A stretch of 64,000 nt of DNA from assembly GCA_963741205.1 (NCBI GenBank), contig CAVUHW010000015.1, positions 32,001 to 96,000 on the forward strand, written 5' to 3'. A program made the translations under genes and the position numbers. Positions 4,155 to 62,440 of this stretch are shown one piece after another. Position 1 is the stretch's first letter. Every line of letters starts with the position of its first letter. The DNA is from Nitrospirota bacterium (GTDB lineage Bacteria; Nitrospirota; UBA9217). The notes under the pieces are model-generated. The model was not told the DNA's origin and ran no database searches. It was given only the letters and a program-made list of their open reading frames with translations.

Positions 4155-4200
4155 AAAAAAAGCCGGGCATACCGAAGGTTTTTCCTTCGGCAGCTCGGCC
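4155..4200 (-). terminator. Intrinsic terminator forming the riboswitch expression platform
   Basis: GCCGAGCTGCCGAAGG-AAAAA-CCTTCGGTATGCCCGGC-TTTTTTT overlaps the aptamer 3' strand. Confidence 0.8.
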
Positions 4201-4265
4201 ATCTTCTTTCAAGACCCGCGGCGTTCCTTCCCCTTCTCGCGAAAGGGTCGGCTTTGTCGGGAAAT
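4184..4265 (-). ncRNA. GEMM-I (cyclic di-GMP-I class) riboswitch aptamer
   Basis: Minus strand CGACAAAGCCGACCCTTTC-GCGA-GAAGGGGAAGGAACGCCGCGGGTCTT-GAAAG-AAGATGGCCGAGCTGCCGAA follows GEMM-I architecture (P2 with GNRA loop, P3, 3' GCCGA). Confidence 0.8.
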
Positions 4266-30837: not shown

Positions 30838-30971
30838 AATTTCGGATTGCACCCTGCACTCGCGTTACCACTCGTAAGCGCTGGGCACAGGCGGAATGCG
30901 GATTGCCGGTTCAGAAAGGCAGCGCCGAATATGCTTTTCCAATCCGAAATCCGAAATCAGTAATCCGCAAT
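30838..30971. repeat. Heptamer palindromic element (TGCGGAA/AATCCGM) containing copy 2 of the 54-bp repeat
   Basis: ttcggattgc[accctgcac..ggcacag]gcggaatgcggatt ... aatccgaaatccgaaatcagtaatccgcaat. Confidence 0.85.
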
Positions 30972-43813: not shown

Positions 43814-44149
43814 ATGGCTATTGAGAGGATCATGCAGTACGAGTGCAGGGTTTGCGGAAGAAAGATCGACGTGACGAGGACAGGAGACGTGTACGAGGAG
43901 CCTGTGTATTGCTGCGGTCTGGAAGCGACTGAAATCAACGCGCCGCAAGCGCCTTCCGCTCCGGTAGCCATACCCGTGAGGAAACCGGCGGCAAAGAAGG
44001 CGAAGAAAAAGGCAGCGACAAAGAAAGCAGCGAAGAAAAAAGCGGTGACGAAGAAAGCGGCGAAGAAAAAGGTGACCAAGAAAAAAGCCGCCAAGAAGAA
44101 GGCTGCCAAAAAGGCTGTAAAAAAGAAGGCGGCAAAGAAAAGAAGGTAA
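43814..44149 (+). CDS. Desulforedoxin-like CxxC...CCG domain fused to a histone H1-like Lys/Ala tail
   Basis: 'YECRVCG..PVYCCG' followed by 'KPAAKKAKKKAATKKAAKKK..' repeats; RBS GAGG; terminator follows. Confidence 0.8.
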   Translation: MAIERIMQYECRVCGRKIDVTRTGDVYEEPVYCCGLEATEINAPQAPSAPVAIPVRKPAAKKAKKKAATKKAAKKKAVTKKAAKKKVTKKKAAKKKAAKKAVKKKAAKKRR

Positions 44150-44266: not shown

Positions 44267-45034
44267 ATGCAGAACCTGGACCGGATGGAGCACGACATAC
44301 GGCGGCTTGCGGGCAGGGCCATCGGTGATTATGGCCTGGTCGAGGACGGCGACCGCATACTCGTCGCGCTGTCAGGCGGCAAGGACAGCTTTACGCTGCT
44401 CCGCATTCTCCAAAGCCTTCAAAAGCGGGCGCCGGTGGCATTCTCCCTCATCGCCGTAACGGTCCATCCGGGGTTCCCCGGCTTTCAGACGCAACGTATC
44501 GAGGATTATCTCGAAACACGCGGCGTCGAGCACCGGGTCGTCCATGCCCCGATCCACAAGCTCATGATCGAGAAGCTGACGCCGGATGATACTCCCTGCG
44601 CCCTCTGCGCCCGGCTGAAGCGCGGCGTGCTGTATACTCAGGCGCGCGAGCTGGGCTGCACCAAGATCGCCCTCGGACATCACCGGGACGATTTCATCGA
44701 GACGCTCCTTTTAAACCAGTTCTACAACGGCAAGATCAAGGCCATGGCCCCGCTGCTCCGGGCCGACGACGGGAGGAACGTCGTGATCCGGCCGCTCGTA
44801 TACGTTCCGGAGGACGATATTATCCGCTTCGCCGTTCTTGCGGGCTTTCCCGTAACTTGCTGCGCCTGTCCGGCATGCGGGGACCAGGACCTGAAACGGT
44901 CCAGGATCAAGGGCCTGCTCGCGGCGCTGGAGCAGGAGCAGCCCGGGGTCAAGGCAAGCCTCCTGGCCGCGCTTGCCGACGTGGACTGCCGCCATCTCCT
45001 CGTGAAAGCGGATGAGGTAGGAAGTAGGAAGTAA
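44267..45034 (+). CDS. ttcA: tRNA 2-thiocytidine(32) synthetase
   Basis: PP-loop SGGKDS, 'CALCARLKRG', 'GHHRDD', 'IRPL', 'CPAC'. Confidence 0.92.
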   Translation: MQNLDRMEHDIRRLAGRAIGDYGLVEDGDRILVALSGGKDSFTLLRILQSLQKRAPVAFSLIAVTVHPGFPGFQTQRIEDYLETRGVEHRVVHAPIHKLMIEKLTPDDTPCALCARLKRGVLYTQARELGCTKIALGHHRDDFIETLLLNQFYNGKIKAMAPLLRADDGRNVVIRPLVYVPEDDIIRFAVLAGFPVTCCACPACGDQDLKRSRIKGLLAALEQEQPGVKASLLAALADVDCRHLLVKADEVGSRK

Positions 45035-45062
45035 GAAGTAGGAAGAAGAAGTAAGAAGTAGA
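45016..45062 (+). repeat. Tandem AGTARGA heptamers spanning the ttcA stop
   Basis: ggtaggaagtaggaagtaagaagtaggaagaagaagtaagaagtag. Confidence 0.85.
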
Positions 45063-45117
45063 GAAGGGTGGAGACACCTGTATTGCATCGAGGGCGGTTT
45101 TTGCTTATAATAACGCC

Positions 45118-51634: not shown

Positions 51635-51729
51635 AACCACAGATGAACACAGATGGGCACTGTTTAAGACTTAAGAAATGAAAAATTATTAATCTTTAAA
51701 CCTGTGTTAATCTGTGTTCATCTGTGGTT
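51635..51729. repeat. Empty palindromic element (ACACAGATG arms) at the gspF/G junction
   Basis: Perfect 20-bp inverted repeat AACCACAGATGAACACAGAT (51635-51654 / 51710-51729). Confidence 0.9.
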
Positions 51730-51752: not shown

Positions 51753-52187
51753 ATGAAGAATCGGAAGGGTTTCACCCTCATTGAAATCATGGTCGTCATC
51801 ATCATCCTGGGTCTCTTGGCGGGCCTGGTGCTCCCCAAATTCCTCGGGCAGGAGGAGAAGGCCAAGGTCGAGGTGGCGAAGACGCAGATCCGCGCTCTTG
51901 AGGGGGCGCTGGACGCGTACAAGCTCGACAACGGGTTCTACCCCACGACCGACCAGGGACTGGACGCCCTGATCAAAAAGCCGGAAACGGGACGCATACC
52001 GGATAAGTGGCGGGAGGGCGGGTATCTGAAACCCGCGAGGATCCCGAAGGACCCCTGGGGCAAGGATTACGTCTACATCGCCCCGGGCAGCGAGAACAGG
52101 GAGTACGAGATCATTTCCTACGGCGCGGACGGCGAGCCCGGCGGCGAGGGCAACAACGCGGACATCGAGAGCTGGAAGATGCAATAA
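51753..52187 (+). CDS. gspG: Major pseudopilin
   Basis: MKNRKG|FTLIEIMVV; 'YKLDNG.YPTT.QGL', 'KDPWG'; RBS GAGGAGG. Confidence 0.95.
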   Translation: MKNRKGFTLIEIMVVIIILGLLAGLVLPKFLGQEEKAKVEVAKTQIRALEGALDAYKLDNGFYPTTDQGLDALIKKPETGRIPDKWREGGYLKPARIPKDPWGKDYVYIAPGSENREYEIISYGADGEPGGEGNNADIESWKMQ

Positions 52188-52297
52188 TGCGGAATGCGGA
52201 ATGGATGCGCACCCCTCACCGCGTCCCTCTCCCCAGTGGGGAGAGGGGGGAAAAGAGAGTCCTCTCCCCCGCGGGGAGAGGATTAAGGTGAGGGGGG
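52187..52297. repeat. ATGCGGA heptamers plus a CCCTCTCCC palindrome inside the gspH leader
   Basis: atgcggaatgcggaatgg..cccctcacc..ccctctccccagtggggagagggg..cctctcccccgcggggagagg..ggtgagggg. Confidence 0.85.
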
Positions 52298-52803
52298 ACT
52301 TATCGCATTCGAAAGGCTTCACCCTCATCGAGCTCACGGTCATCATCGTGATTCTGGGCGTCATGCTCTCGCTCATCATCCCCCGGCTCGGTGAGCTGGG
52401 CGAAGCGAACCTGAAGCGGAGCGCCAGGCACCTTACCGGGATGATCCGCTTCCTTCGGGACGAGGCGCAGGCGAAGAAATCCAGTTTCCGGCTGCGCTTC
52501 GACGTTGCGGAGGGACGATACTGGACCGAGGTTTTGACATTGAACCTCAGCGAGAAGACCGCCGAGTTCAGGCGGTATTCATCGGAAATGGGAACAGAGG
52601 GCAGTCTTTCAGGCCAGACGACATTGCGCGATGTCAAGGTTGCGAGCCATCCCGACGATCCGTATATCGAATTCTCGCCCACCGGATGGGTGGAGCACTC
52701 CTTGATCCATCTTCGTGACGGCGACGGACGGGATTTCACGCTCTTGGTCAATCCGCTCACCGGCAACACCGAACTCCGCGAGGGATATATCGAGGAGCGA
52801 TGA
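52201..52803 (+). CDS. gspH: Minor pseudopilin with a long repeat-derived leader
   Basis: 'SKG|FTLIELTVIIVILG'; position in the operon. Confidence 0.85.
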   Translation: MDAHPSPRPSPQWGEGGKESPLPRGERIKVRGDLSHSKGFTLIELTVIIVILGVMLSLIIPRLGELGEANLKRSARHLTGMIRFLRDEAQAKKSSFRLRFDVAEGRYWTEVLTLNLSEKTAEFRRYSSEMGTEGSLSGQTTLRDVKVASHPDDPYIEFSPTGWVEHSLIHLRDGDGRDFTLLVNPLTGNTELREGYIEER

Positions 52804-52865
52804 TGAAGAATTGCGGATTGCGATGGAAGTGCGGAAGGCAGGACTGATTCCGAATTCGGATTAGC

Positions 52866-53271
52866 TTGAATCGTTTACATTCCGCAATCCGCAATCCGCA
52901 ATCCGCAATCGAAGGGTTTCACTCTCCTCGAGGTCATGGTCGCCGTCTCGATCATGGCCATGGTGCTGGTGACCCTCATGGGGCTCAAAAACAGGTCCAT
53001 GCAGGACGTGGCGCTGGACGAGCATATCACCACGGCGACGATGCTGGCTGATGGGAAGATGCTGGAGACGATAAAATCACGGAACTTCGATGCAGTAGAA
53101 GAAGAGGGAGAATATCCAGCCGGGGAAAATCTTACGGAGTACACCTGGAAGAGAACAATCTCTAAAATACCGCTTCCCAACGGTACGTTGCTCACGGAGA
53201 TTCGTATTGCCACGCTGTGGAAAGAAGGCACGCGCCCGGAGATGGTGGAACTGGTGGACTATGAATTGTGA
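52866..53271 (+). CDS. gspI: Minor pseudopilin; the upstream start is out of frame with the pilin motif
   Basis: 'SKG|FTLLEVMVAV' at 52909-52947; in-frame TGA at 52867; AATCCGC tandem repeats directly upstream of the cleavage motif. Confidence 0.8.
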
Positions 53272-53994
53272 AATTTCGGATTTCGGATTTCGGATTTCGG
53301 AATGGAGAATGCTGAGGTTCCAAAAGAACTCAAATCCGCAATCCGCATTCCGCAATCCGCAATCGAACGGGTTCACGCTTCTTGAAGTGCTTATCGCCGT
53401 GGCGATCATGGCGGGAATCATTACCGTTATCTATCAGAGTTTTTTTACCGCAAGCAGAAACGTTGAACAGGCGGAAGCAATACGGGATTCGTCTGACATG
53501 GCGCGCACCCTGGTGGCGAAAATCTCCGATGATATATCCAATGCATATTATAATCAGGCAATGAACAGGTCCGCAGTCATTACGATTTTCAACGGTAAGA
53601 AGGAACAGGCTGATTCGACTGGACGAGAAAAGCAGGCTTGACAGCATTACCCTGACAACACTTACGAACTGGAGACGGCCGAACACGAAAGAGACCGATC
53701 TCTGGGAAGTCGGTTATTTTTTCAGGCAAAAGCCGGATGGCTCGGGTTATGTCATGATGCGCAGGGAAAAGCGGGAACTCAGCAAGGATGTACCGGCAGG
53801 CGAGGGCGGCAATCGAGTATGAGATCACGGACCGCGTGAAGTTTTTGCAGCTGCGGTATAACACGGGTGGAGACACCTGGTACGATGAATGGAACAGCAC
53901 GAGCCGGAACGGGCTCCCAAAACTGGTGGAGATAGCGCTGACACTCGACAGCGGGTTGACCTACTCAACATACGTTGAAGTTCAAAAATATTAG
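53261..53994 (+). CDS. gspJ: Minor pseudopilin with a repeat-derived leader, frameshifted
   Basis: MNCEISDFGFRISE..NPQSAFRNPQSNG|FTLLEVLIAVAI; C-terminal 'LPKLVEIAL'. Confidence 0.85.
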
Positions 53995-54839
53995 CCGACG
54001 CGTCAGGGAGTGCGGGGTGCGGAAGGGTCATCATTGGGTGCGCAACAGTCGCGGGGTGGCGCTTATCATCGTTCTTTTGGTTACGGCGCTTTTGATCGCG
54101 TTGATTTTTGAGTTTGCCTACGGAACGCGGGTGAGCCTCCGTGCCGCCGTAAACTTCCGCAACAGTGAGAGGGCATATTTTCTCGCACGCTCGGGTTTCG
54201 GGGTATTCGCCAGGTTTCCCGAAGTGCGGGATTATTATCATCAAGGGGAATTGAGTGACCCCCTTCCTTTCGTGAGTGAAGCCGACAAGGAACTGAGAGT
54301 CCTATGGGAAGATGAGCGCGGAAAAATCAATGTGACAAACATATCCAGGGGGAATGTCGCTTTCAACCGTCTCACGAATCTATTTTCCATTCTCCAGATC
54401 GACCAGGGCATTCTTGACCAGATCAGTTCATGGATGACCAATGAGCAAAGAGGCTTCTATTTGCTTACCGAGCTTCACCTGTTCCTGAGCGACGACGACT
54501 ACCGGAAAGTCGAGCACTTTCTGACGGTAAACAACAATACGGACGAGAAGATCAACATAAACACCGCACCGTCCCAAGTTCTTCAAAGTCTCGGGTTAAG
54601 CGCCCCGGATGCAGACCGTATTGTTGATTCAGCAAAACAAGAACCCTTTGATCCAGGCAAAAAACCTGATCAATACCGCACCCGGTATGACCGCGATGAT
54701 CGCCGGACAATTGGTCACGTCAAGCAACGTGTTCAAAGTCAGCTCAATCGCAACGGTAGGCGGTTACACAAAGCACATTGATGCTATCATGACGATGAAC
54801 GGTCCTCAATACACCATAAACTACTGGAGAGCGCTTTGA
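53975..54839 (+). CDS. gspK: Minor pseudopilin K, frameshifted near 54660; start may be GTG 54017
   Basis: 'SRG|VALIIVLL', 'DERGKINV', 'KININTA'. Confidence 0.85.
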
Positions 54840-56181: not shown

Positions 56182-56536
56182 TGTAACCACAGATGAACAC
56201 AGATGGACACGGTAAAGACAGAGACAATGACCCTGAAAAGGATTCTTTATAAAGAATTAACAAAGGATAATCTGGACTCGGCTTTTAAAATACATAATGC
56301 CTGGGTTGCGGCTGCTGGAAAAAGTTTATGGCAATGCTCTGATATGGGATCTGGAACTAAAAAAGAAAAAAGTTTCAATGCAGCAACAATACAGCTGTTT
56401 GGTACTGATATCGTCGAAGAAAATCGTGGAAAAAATCTGTAACGGCGAGTTGCTCAATTATTTAAGGATTCTGGGTCGTGTTGGTCCTAATGGACCGAAA
56501 GAGTATGTTTGTTTAACGTGTTCATCCGTGGTTACA
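56182..56536 (+). mobile_element. Palindromic element with ACACAGATG arms carrying a decayed GxxExxY gene
   Basis: tgtaaccacagatgaacac (56182-56200) / gtgttcatccgtggttaca (56518-56536), 1 mismatch; same arms as 51635-51729. Confidence 0.7.
56227..56516 (+). pseudogene. GxxExxY family protein remnant
   Basis: 'ILYKELT..SAFKIHNA', then in another frame 'LLEKVYGNAL..', 'DIV' and 'LLNYLR'. Multiple indels and deletions; AT-rich. Confidence 0.75.
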
Positions 56537-62351: not shown

Positions 62352-62440
62352 GCGAATTGCGGAATTGCGGAATCGAAAATGAAGAAATGGCTCATTGCCG
62401 TTTAATCCGCAATCCGAAATCCGCAATCCGAAATCGCAAC
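62352..62440. repeat. Heptamer palindromic element (TGCGGAA/AATCCGM) between convergent genes
   Basis: gaattgcggaattgcggaatcg ... aatccgcaatccgaaatccgcaatccgaaatcg. Confidence 0.85.

Follow-up and report, generated by a model that had tools for sequence, protein, structure and literature searches.

Heptamer hairpin repeats as probable translated, cleavable leaders of minor pseudopilins in a Nitrospirota type II secretion cluster

The DNA considered here, a stretch of 64,000 nucleotides from a Nitrospirota bacterium that is referred to throughout as the window (C15:32001-96000 of the source genome), carries a type II secretion system (T2SS) cluster at 45.5-57.9 kb, as judged from Pfam matches. 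The sequences that lead into the minor pseudopilin genes gspH, gspI and gspJ of this cluster are copies of dispersed repeats, namely hairpins whose arms are arrays of a 7-base unit (heptamer arrays) and a G+C-rich double palindrome nested in one of them, and these repeats are probably translated as long, cleavable leaders of the pseudopilins. The repeats sit between the stop codon of the upstream pseudopilin gene and the Gly-Phe processing site of the next gene; the genes would start at or beside the preceding stop, placing the repeats inside the reading frame as an extended N-terminal leader, of 37 residues including the Gly in GspJ and of 39 in GspH if ATG 52201 is used. Prepilin peptidase would remove this leader on the cytoplasmic side and leave the mature pseudopilin unchanged, and the leaders of minor pseudopilins would collect repeats because only insertions that keep the frame and lack stops survive. 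Since three passes through a 7-base unit spell one and the same 7-residue peptide whichever frame is read (NPQSAIR, ADCGLRI, ISDFGFR), the arrays themselves are indifferent to frame, with only flanks and loops constrained, and the repeats would be passengers rather than regulators.

The repeats themselves are plain to see. Each period-7 array that Tandem Repeats Finder calls at the junctions (Table 1) has an inverted partner in a repeat search, and four of the nine period-7 rows of the window fall within 1.2 kb at the gspH-gspJ junctions. The partners ahead of gspI, 52810-52822 and 52883-52909, are 100% complementary, and RNA folding of the three junctions gives -74.6, -45.1 and -35.7 kcal/mol (z -5.4, -3.9 and -2.0). 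The gspH junction is a composite, in which a heptamer hairpin, its right arm a remnant just before the Gly codon, holds in its loop the double palindrome, with 35-nt inverted arms at 52212-52246 and 52261-52295. An earlier note on this DNA had reported such repeats in the leaders: the arrays lie where it had placed them, the peptides that it quoted are in-frame translations, and the tandem ATGCGGA at the gspG stop (TAA 52185-52187) does supply an ATG in each frame (52187, 52194 and 52201), the last of them in frame with gspH.

Because the frames of the window cannot be trusted singly, for reasons given below, the argument rests on relatives. The gspG-K stretch was compared between the source genome (G000) and 20 other genomes, 14 of the same genus and 6 from other genera of the family, yielding 60 junctions of 10-208 nt, where a junction runs from the upstream stop to the Gly codon of the next gene (gspG to gspH, gspH to gspI and gspI to gspJ; in what follows G, L and X labels denote genomes, independent contig records and environmental runs, and J a junction). 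Over all 60 junctions the gene frame contains 6 stop codons, as against 59 in frame +1 and 64 in frame +2. Among the 21 junctions of at least 100 nt, 20 are open in the gene frame and 4 in each of the others, the sole exception being that of gspI in the window. Merging junctions that share at least 70% identity leaves 44 groups, of which 41 are open in the gene frame and 19 and 16 in the other two (Fisher p 8e-10); for the 18 groups of at least 100 nt the counts are 17, 3 and 4 (Fisher p 1e-7). Only one frame is open through the right end of the G+C-rich palindrome (GGATTRAGGTGAGG), and the three T2SS copies with this end (window gspH, G018 gspH and G018 gspJ) are all read in that frame. An alternative is that these are ordinary intergenic repeats, with starts just before the cleavage motif, leaders of 5-10 residues, and openness as a by-product of stop-poor units; the restriction of stop depletion to the gene frame tells against it.

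Most of the 20 relatives also have elements at these three junctions, though of differing units, and the comparison of leaders across orthologues that the earlier note had called for finds a length of 7 to more than 70 residues, changing by gain and loss of repeats while the gene frame is kept open. Within the genus, two genomes have a gspH junction of 107-127 nt and most have one of 48-54 nt, and short junctions free of hairpins also occur (10 nt at G015 J3, 19 nt at G024 J3 and 16 nt at G013 J3).

Start codons point the same way. A start lying -12 to +14 nt from the upstream stop, with an open path to the motif, is found at 47 of the 60 junctions and, in the control frames, at 6 and 3; among the 31 junctions of at least 80 nt the figures are 24 against 4 and 1. 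Only 1 of the 60 junctions lacks an open path from a start. Of direct bearing on intergenic repeats with downstream starts, only 11 of the 31 longer junctions have a start in the 45 nt that precede the Gly codon, the other 20 having none there, and a start with a Shine-Dalgarno (SD) sequence of at least 4 bases lies that close in only 3. At the gspI-gspJ junction, the ATG in 'agctATGaaTAG' is kept in 17 of the 19 genomes with that junction, and 16 of the 19 have a gap of length 1 mod 3, which brings this ATG into frame across gaps of 10-208 nt; as exceptions, G002 uses an in-frame ATG overlapping the stop, while in G001 and G010 an in-frame stop is closely followed by a GTG that serves as the start. 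For gspJ, and for several of the gspI genes, it is a native start overlapping or abutting the upstream stop that is used, with the element behind it. The proposal that start codons within the units restore translation in any frame holds for only a subset: such units supply the in-frame start at window gspH, G015 J1, G018 J1, G018 J2, G006 J2 and L042.

Long leaders are normal in this family. In four better assemblies, where 59 PF07963 matches were scanned and the motif was located in 58, 14 of the 58 prepilin genes have no ATG, GTG or TTG within 15 codons of the Gly and hence an obligatorily long leader, while the major pilin-like genes have leaders of 5-8 residues and no repeats. A strong period-7 signal lies within 150 nt upstream of 9 of the 58, and two of these nine have a start 5 codons from the Gly, behind the repeat. 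Prepilin leaders are described as varying in length, hydrophilic or neutral, with Gly or Ala as their last residue, and as being cleaved on the cytoplasmic face of the membrane (PMC10191384), a description that the heptamer-encoded peptides fit.

Within the window, the long leader of gspJ is well supported as a prediction from sequence. The conserved ATG 53261 overlaps the end of gspI and leaves 36 codons plus the Gly (codon 53369) before the Phe, and the only other in-frame start, ATG 53309 in the loop, would likewise put the right arm in the leader, which again disfavours starts downstream of the repeats. For gspH the start is ambiguous. The long form, from ATG 52201, has 38 codons plus the Gly (codon 52315) before the Phe and ends at TGA 52801-52803; the short form, from GTG 52288 at the right end of the double palindrome, has 9 codons plus the Gly and would give MRGDLSHSKG/F, the slash marking the cut. 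The GTG has the better SD; the long form nevertheless appears slightly ahead, since that SD lies within a predicted G+C-rich hairpin stem and only the long frame is open at this junction, the other two having one stop each. At gspK the candidate starts are GTG 54017, with SD AGGGAG, and GTG 54038, the Gly codon being 54053. The repeat at gspK is marginal: the earlier claim of a repeat-encoded leader 'ECGVRKG' finds only two degenerate units there, while relatives do have heptamer units at the same position. The element ahead of gspG precedes an SD (GAGGAGG) and ATG 51753 and is hence outside any reading frame. The gspH and gspK GTG codons and the placement of the gspG element are what ordinary intergenic repeats have in their favour in this cluster. 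Downstream starts are nonetheless unlikely overall, if possible for gspH, and the intergenic explanation as a whole is improbable.

The same architecture is found beyond the relative set. A search pattern made of the right arm plus the prepilin motif matched 8 contig records, from 5 Nitrospirota metagenome-assembled genomes (MAGs), 2 Pyrinomonadaceae and 1 'delta proteobacterium' MAG, and 7 of these 8 are prepilin genes, of which 6 are open from an upstream start. In L046 an AGGAG is followed after 6 nt by an ATG, then by the arrays and then by GFT; in L049, a gspI, the frame runs from an ATGA overlap through the entire hairpin. In L045, from a Pyrinomonadaceae MAG (about 330-420), a single-arm array of TCCGCA type lies in frame within the apparent linker of a carA-like carbamoyl-phosphate synthase small subunit.

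Across the source genome, Tandem Repeats Finder returns 411 rows of period 7, against 160 of period 6 and 176 of period 8, from many unit families, AATGCGG accounting for 35 rows and AATCCGC for 34. Arrays of 2.5 copies or more number 332, and 101 of these can be joined into 51 clear inverted pairs, whose median length is 82 nt and median spacer 20 nt; the elements that were folded have z-scores of -2.0 to -6.5. The G+C-rich palindrome is itself a family of 33 loci (for example C34:15373-15427, C34:16305-16358 and C10:21357), often nested in heptamer hairpins and in several cases bordered by heptamer arrays; in six copies the similarity extends into longer flanks that resemble the end of a larger repeated element. 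Classed against a rough open reading frame (ORF) model of our own (4,082 ORFs, 77% of the genome), 175 of the 332 arrays lie outside ORFs, 66 within the open 5' end of an ORF, 42 inside an ORF and in frame, 38 across an ORF end and 11 at a 3' end. That 175 are outside, and that many of the 66 have an evident ATG behind them, agrees with ordinary intergenic repeats. The ORF-internal arrays, which count in favour of translated repeats, sit in RfbB-, HypF-, CarB- and GuaA-like proteins, among others (families judged by eye from motifs), and the elements are therefore not special to pilins. The earlier note had asked whether the arms are enriched in start codons and depleted of stops. The first half stands, an ATG on either strand being over-represented (122 of 332 arrays, 18% expected), and the second does not, since 129 of 332 arrays are free of stops on both strands where 59-66% would be expected, a trend in the opposite direction. 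It thus seems that the elements are not made to be translated and that selection instead decides which copies can remain within genes.

In-frame arrays or whole hairpins lie in long ORFs that resemble maturation or housekeeping enzymes (judged by eye from the translations) at C11:15590, C27:102583, C27:133420, C27:134375, C15:157771, C34:178984 and C7:5948-6061. Two further prepilin-type genes have a heptamer hairpin directly before the Gly, at C34:145504-145690 (GFTLIELMIV) and at C6:128943-128969 (GFSYIALLV), the latter reading MKNRRYYCGMRIAECGLKGSKIRNSQ/G; the C34 gene, like gspI of the window, offers no ATG, GTG or TTG in the interval from its final in-frame stop to the motif. At C34:174051-174081 an AGTGCGG array is in frame with, and directly 5' of, an apparent Sec signal peptide (..VRSTKFVVIVSLVLLLASAAFAAQ), and a GTG within this array could serve as the start of that ORF.

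Several observations weigh against translation of the repeats as leaders. In gspH of the window the GTG 52288 has a GGAGAGG at 6 nt (the scan scored AGGA at 5 nt) and would exclude most of the repeat, and G018 J1 offers the same downstream-start option. As assembled, gspI of the window has two in-frame stops and no start, and 1-base insertions and many split genes make the window's own frames weak evidence. The relatives are kin, and grouping at 70% identity lessens this dependence without removing it. Among the independent records, the frame of the prepilin locus L043 is interrupted by a stop in the loop, after which no start follows. Genome-wide, the shortage of stop-free arrays and the 175 arrays outside ORFs, the latter within the limits of the rough ORF model, indicate that the arrays are not built for translation. 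The general claim of the earlier note, that the leaders harbour repeats, is supported by the gene-frame openness and the starts at upstream stops, and only in part by the window, where gspI has no start and the gspK repeat is marginal.

In gspI of the window the Gly codon is at 52915, an in-frame TGA lies at 52867-52869 with no ATG, GTG or TTG between the two, and the first start in its frame, ATG 52936, is downstream of the cleavage site; the leader '..IRNPQSKG' that had been assigned to GspI therefore has no start from which to be read. In the orthologues the frame stays open from a start codon located at the stop of gspH, and the window gspI is broken or mis-assembled. Two repairs were considered and set aside. 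Loss of one right-arm unit brings TTG 52866 into frame without an SD, and with a single change the conserved ATGA-overlap start still meets TGA 52845, so that no single change explains the gene. A 7-base unit does shift the frame when gained or lost, and the arrays might on this account form a phase-variable switch that toggles single minor pseudopilins, as the frame gained by gspI through loss of one unit and the likewise out-of-frame L043 would allow. Such a switch is very improbable: the arrays have no more than 2.6-4.6 units, and an open path from a start is missing at just 1 of 60 junctions and 1 of 7 further pilin loci. Each of the two out-of-frame cases is known from a single assembly, and in one of these assemblies indel errors are proven. 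Contigs from 4 environmental runs, whose cover is thin and from other strains, contain no difference of plus or minus 7 at the arrays.

The assembly errors are documented at gspJ, which changes frame twice (near 53621 and 53814) relative to the intact genes of six relatives. In environmental contigs matching at about 99%, X1, X2 and X5 are without one base at 53814 and X5 is without one at 53621, and since the extra bases at both break points are absent there, the assembly carries 1-base insertion errors. Other split genes of the window are gspD, E, F, K and L (46.5-56.2 kb, with gspJ) and those for UPF0182 and ribonucleotide reductase (35.2-38.2 and 40.9-43.4 kb); rpoB is intact. The possibility that the T2SS operon is a set of pseudogenes was rejected, given that splits occur elsewhere too, that rpoB is intact and that environmental contigs are without the extra gspJ bases. 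The breaks are read as mostly assembly errors, with proof still wanting in the case of gspD, E, F, K and L.

The environmental contigs come from related strains (the best DNA runs share at most 0.14 of sampled words, the longest piece is 384 nt, and among the runs searched no RNA run contains the stretch), and they record turnover at the junctions. In a near-identical X2 contig, with 2 differing letters in 70 and 9 in 232, 53 nt replace the 127-nt gspH junction, and in a 94%-like contig, X4, the gspI junction differs by nine small indels with a net gain of 11 nt. Replacement of a junction between strains, together with the varying junction lengths, indicates that elements come and go while the frame is kept; the 53-for-127-nt replacement is evidence of turnover, not of its mechanism.

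Translation of the repeats is compatible with a regulatory role, and a further explanation, possible if doubtful, agrees on what is read and differs on why: the elements would be domesticated regulators, whose hairpins and out-of-frame ATGs limit or couple translation of the minor pseudopilins relative to GspG, or set the stability of the mRNA. The recurrence of elements with differing units at the same three junctions in most relatives fits such a role, as do the lack of elements at short-leader major pilins, the two of three ATGs at the gspG stop that open short dead-end frames, and the better folding of sense than antisense RNA in 24 of 31 long junctions. Passenger repeats are better matched by the short, hairpin-free junctions of some relatives, by the near-identical strain with 53 nt in place of the 127-nt gspH junction, and by the presence of the same repeats inside unrelated enzymes. 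The folding asymmetry was rejected as a sign of selection at the RNA level, being absent genome-wide (14 vs 9 of 24 pairs); richness in G+U could explain it. More speculatively, leaders of minor pilin and pseudopilin subunits might be the preferred site across phyla for retention of heptamer hairpins (here in Nitrospirota, with unit and junction shared in Pyrinomonadaceae and the 'delta proteobacterium' MAG), the hairpin and out-of-frame ATGs having been co-opted, inside a peptide that is cut off, as an attenuator that sets low, coupled translation of minor versus major subunits; as a whole this must be considered doubtful.

Heptanucleotide tandem repeats have precedents, among them the STRR repeats of cyanobacteria. 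The TAACTGA heptanucleotide repeats of Beggiatoaceae, Cyanobacteria and Bacteroidetes number tens to hundreds of sets per genome, are mostly intergenic and often directly 5' of start codons, and differ between strains by indels in 7-nt steps; 169 sets are direct and one indirect, stop triplets occur in them, and they are reported not to be translated (PMC4679880). The present elements resemble them in unit length, in the many sets per genome and in being mostly intergenic and often near starts, and differ in that inverted array pairs form hairpins that lie in the reading frame at these genes. Over-abundant 7-base repeats with G-rich, quadruplex-forming units are reported for Xanthomonas and Nostoc (PMC4692102); the likeness lies in the over-abundance of heptamers, hairpin pairing and in-frame reading apparently not being described there. 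In behaviour only, the elements are also like the Rickettsia palindromic elements, dispersed hairpin repeats of about 100-150 bp, many of which lie in frame in genes and are translated without destroying the protein (Ogata et al. 2000, as reviewed in PMC10969869): both are multi-copy and hairpin-forming, with in-frame copies kept open. They differ in that the arms here are 7-base arrays of many unit families rather than one conserved sequence, that the preferred coding site is a cleaved leader, and that the lineage is Nitrospirota. Type IVb pilins and those of Streptococcus sanguinis have hydrophilic leaders far above the usual 5-10 residues that are still processed (PMC10191384); the leaders here are likewise long and of class III, with predicted cleavage, and are built from dispersed repeats, which is not reported for the other two. 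In a literature search that left subscription journals largely outside its scope, no account of prepilin leaders made of heptamer hairpins came to light.

If the repeats are indeed read as leaders, the prepilin leader would be a coding sequence almost free of constraint on sequence and length, in which selfish or slippage-born repeats can persist without cost, and the junctions would show where heptamer hairpins survive inside genes. Leaders of great length and arbitrary sequence would have to be substrates for prepilin peptidases, and gene callers would choose wrong starts or call such genes broken.

The identities of the genes follow from Pfam and NCBIfam matches. The Pfam order is gspC, gspD (two pieces), gspE and gspF (in pieces), gspG, three genes with the N-methyl prepilin motif, a GspJ C-terminal piece, gspK, gspL and gspM. 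For GspH, GspI, GspJ and GspK the expected families rank best among curated equivalog models and all are below cut-off (Table 1; for the gspK product, NF037980 GspK, 78 bits, cut-off 130), so that these names rest on best sub-cut-off matches plus gene order in the gspC-D-E-F-G...L-M cluster. A class III signal peptide has Gly or Ala at -1, about 20 hydrophobic residues and often Glu at +5. PF07963 matches the products of gspG, H, I and J, TIGR02532 matches are found, and G/FTL(I or L)E is visible; the processing site of gspK, RG/VALIIVLL, is without Glu5. The GspG leader has 5 residues plus the Gly (MKNRKG/FTLIE). A Peptidase_A24 gene lies elsewhere in the genome, at C20:131117-131506 (71.6 bits, cut-off 26.5).

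Table 1. Pseudopilin genes and repeat elements between 51.6 and 54.1 kb of the window (TRF, Tandem Repeats Finder; percentages as given by TRF unless stated otherwise)
Feature	Positions	Strand	Details
Hairpin element 5' of gspG, units CACAGAT / ATCTGTG	51635..51729	+	31-nt arms, 84%, by inverted pairing; -46.3 kcal/mol, z -6.5
gspG, major pseudopilin	51753..52187	+	TIGR01710 186 bits, cut-off 88.85; PF08334, PF07963
Left heptamer arm, begins in gspG stop	52186..52203	+	AATGCGG x2.6, 100% (TRF)
gspH-like gene	52201..52803	+	best match TIGR01708 42.9 bits, below cut-off 80; PF07963
G+C-rich double palindrome (CCCCTCACC..CCTCTCCCC..GGGGAGAGG, twice, ..GGTGAGGGG)	52212..52295	+	nested in heptamer hairpin; right end contains SD-like GGAGAGG and GTG 52288
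Heptamer hairpin gspH/gspI	52808..52910	+	left arm ATTGCGGATTGCG.. 52810-52822; right arm TCCGCAA x4.3, 100%, 52881-52910; z -3.9
gspI-like gene	52870..53271	+	best match TIGR01707 39.3 bits, cut-off 44.35
gspJ-like gene	53261..53994	+	PF11612 on last piece; GspJ model 22.4 of 64.85 (fragment)
Heptamer hairpin in gspJ leader	53273..53364	+	arms ATTTCGG x4.1, 100%, 53273-53301, and AATCCGC x4.6, 92%, 53333-53364; 31-nt loop holds ATG 53309
Two degenerate heptamer units GAGTGCG GGGTGCG, gspK leader region	54005..54026	+	below TRF score 30

Related repeats occur elsewhere in the window. The CACAGAT / CATCTGT unit of the gspG element also forms a hairpin or array at 56188-56210, after gspL, and a (GTAGGAA)x7 array lies at 45017-45066 ahead of gspC. 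A heptamer element at 30893-30971 ends just before the SD and ATG 30982 of a 1046-residue ORF, and another, at 62354-62439, separates the end of one gene from a second gene that converges on it. Tandem repeats of 15 and 30 nt rich in GAAGAAAAAAGC occupy 43999-44139 and, if read in frame, would encode a Lys/Ala-rich repeat. Rfam gives no match at 51.6-54.1 kb; its only match in the window is a cyclic di-GMP-I riboswitch aptamer at 4186-4262 on the reverse strand (c-di-GMP-I, 39.5 bits, gathering score 35).

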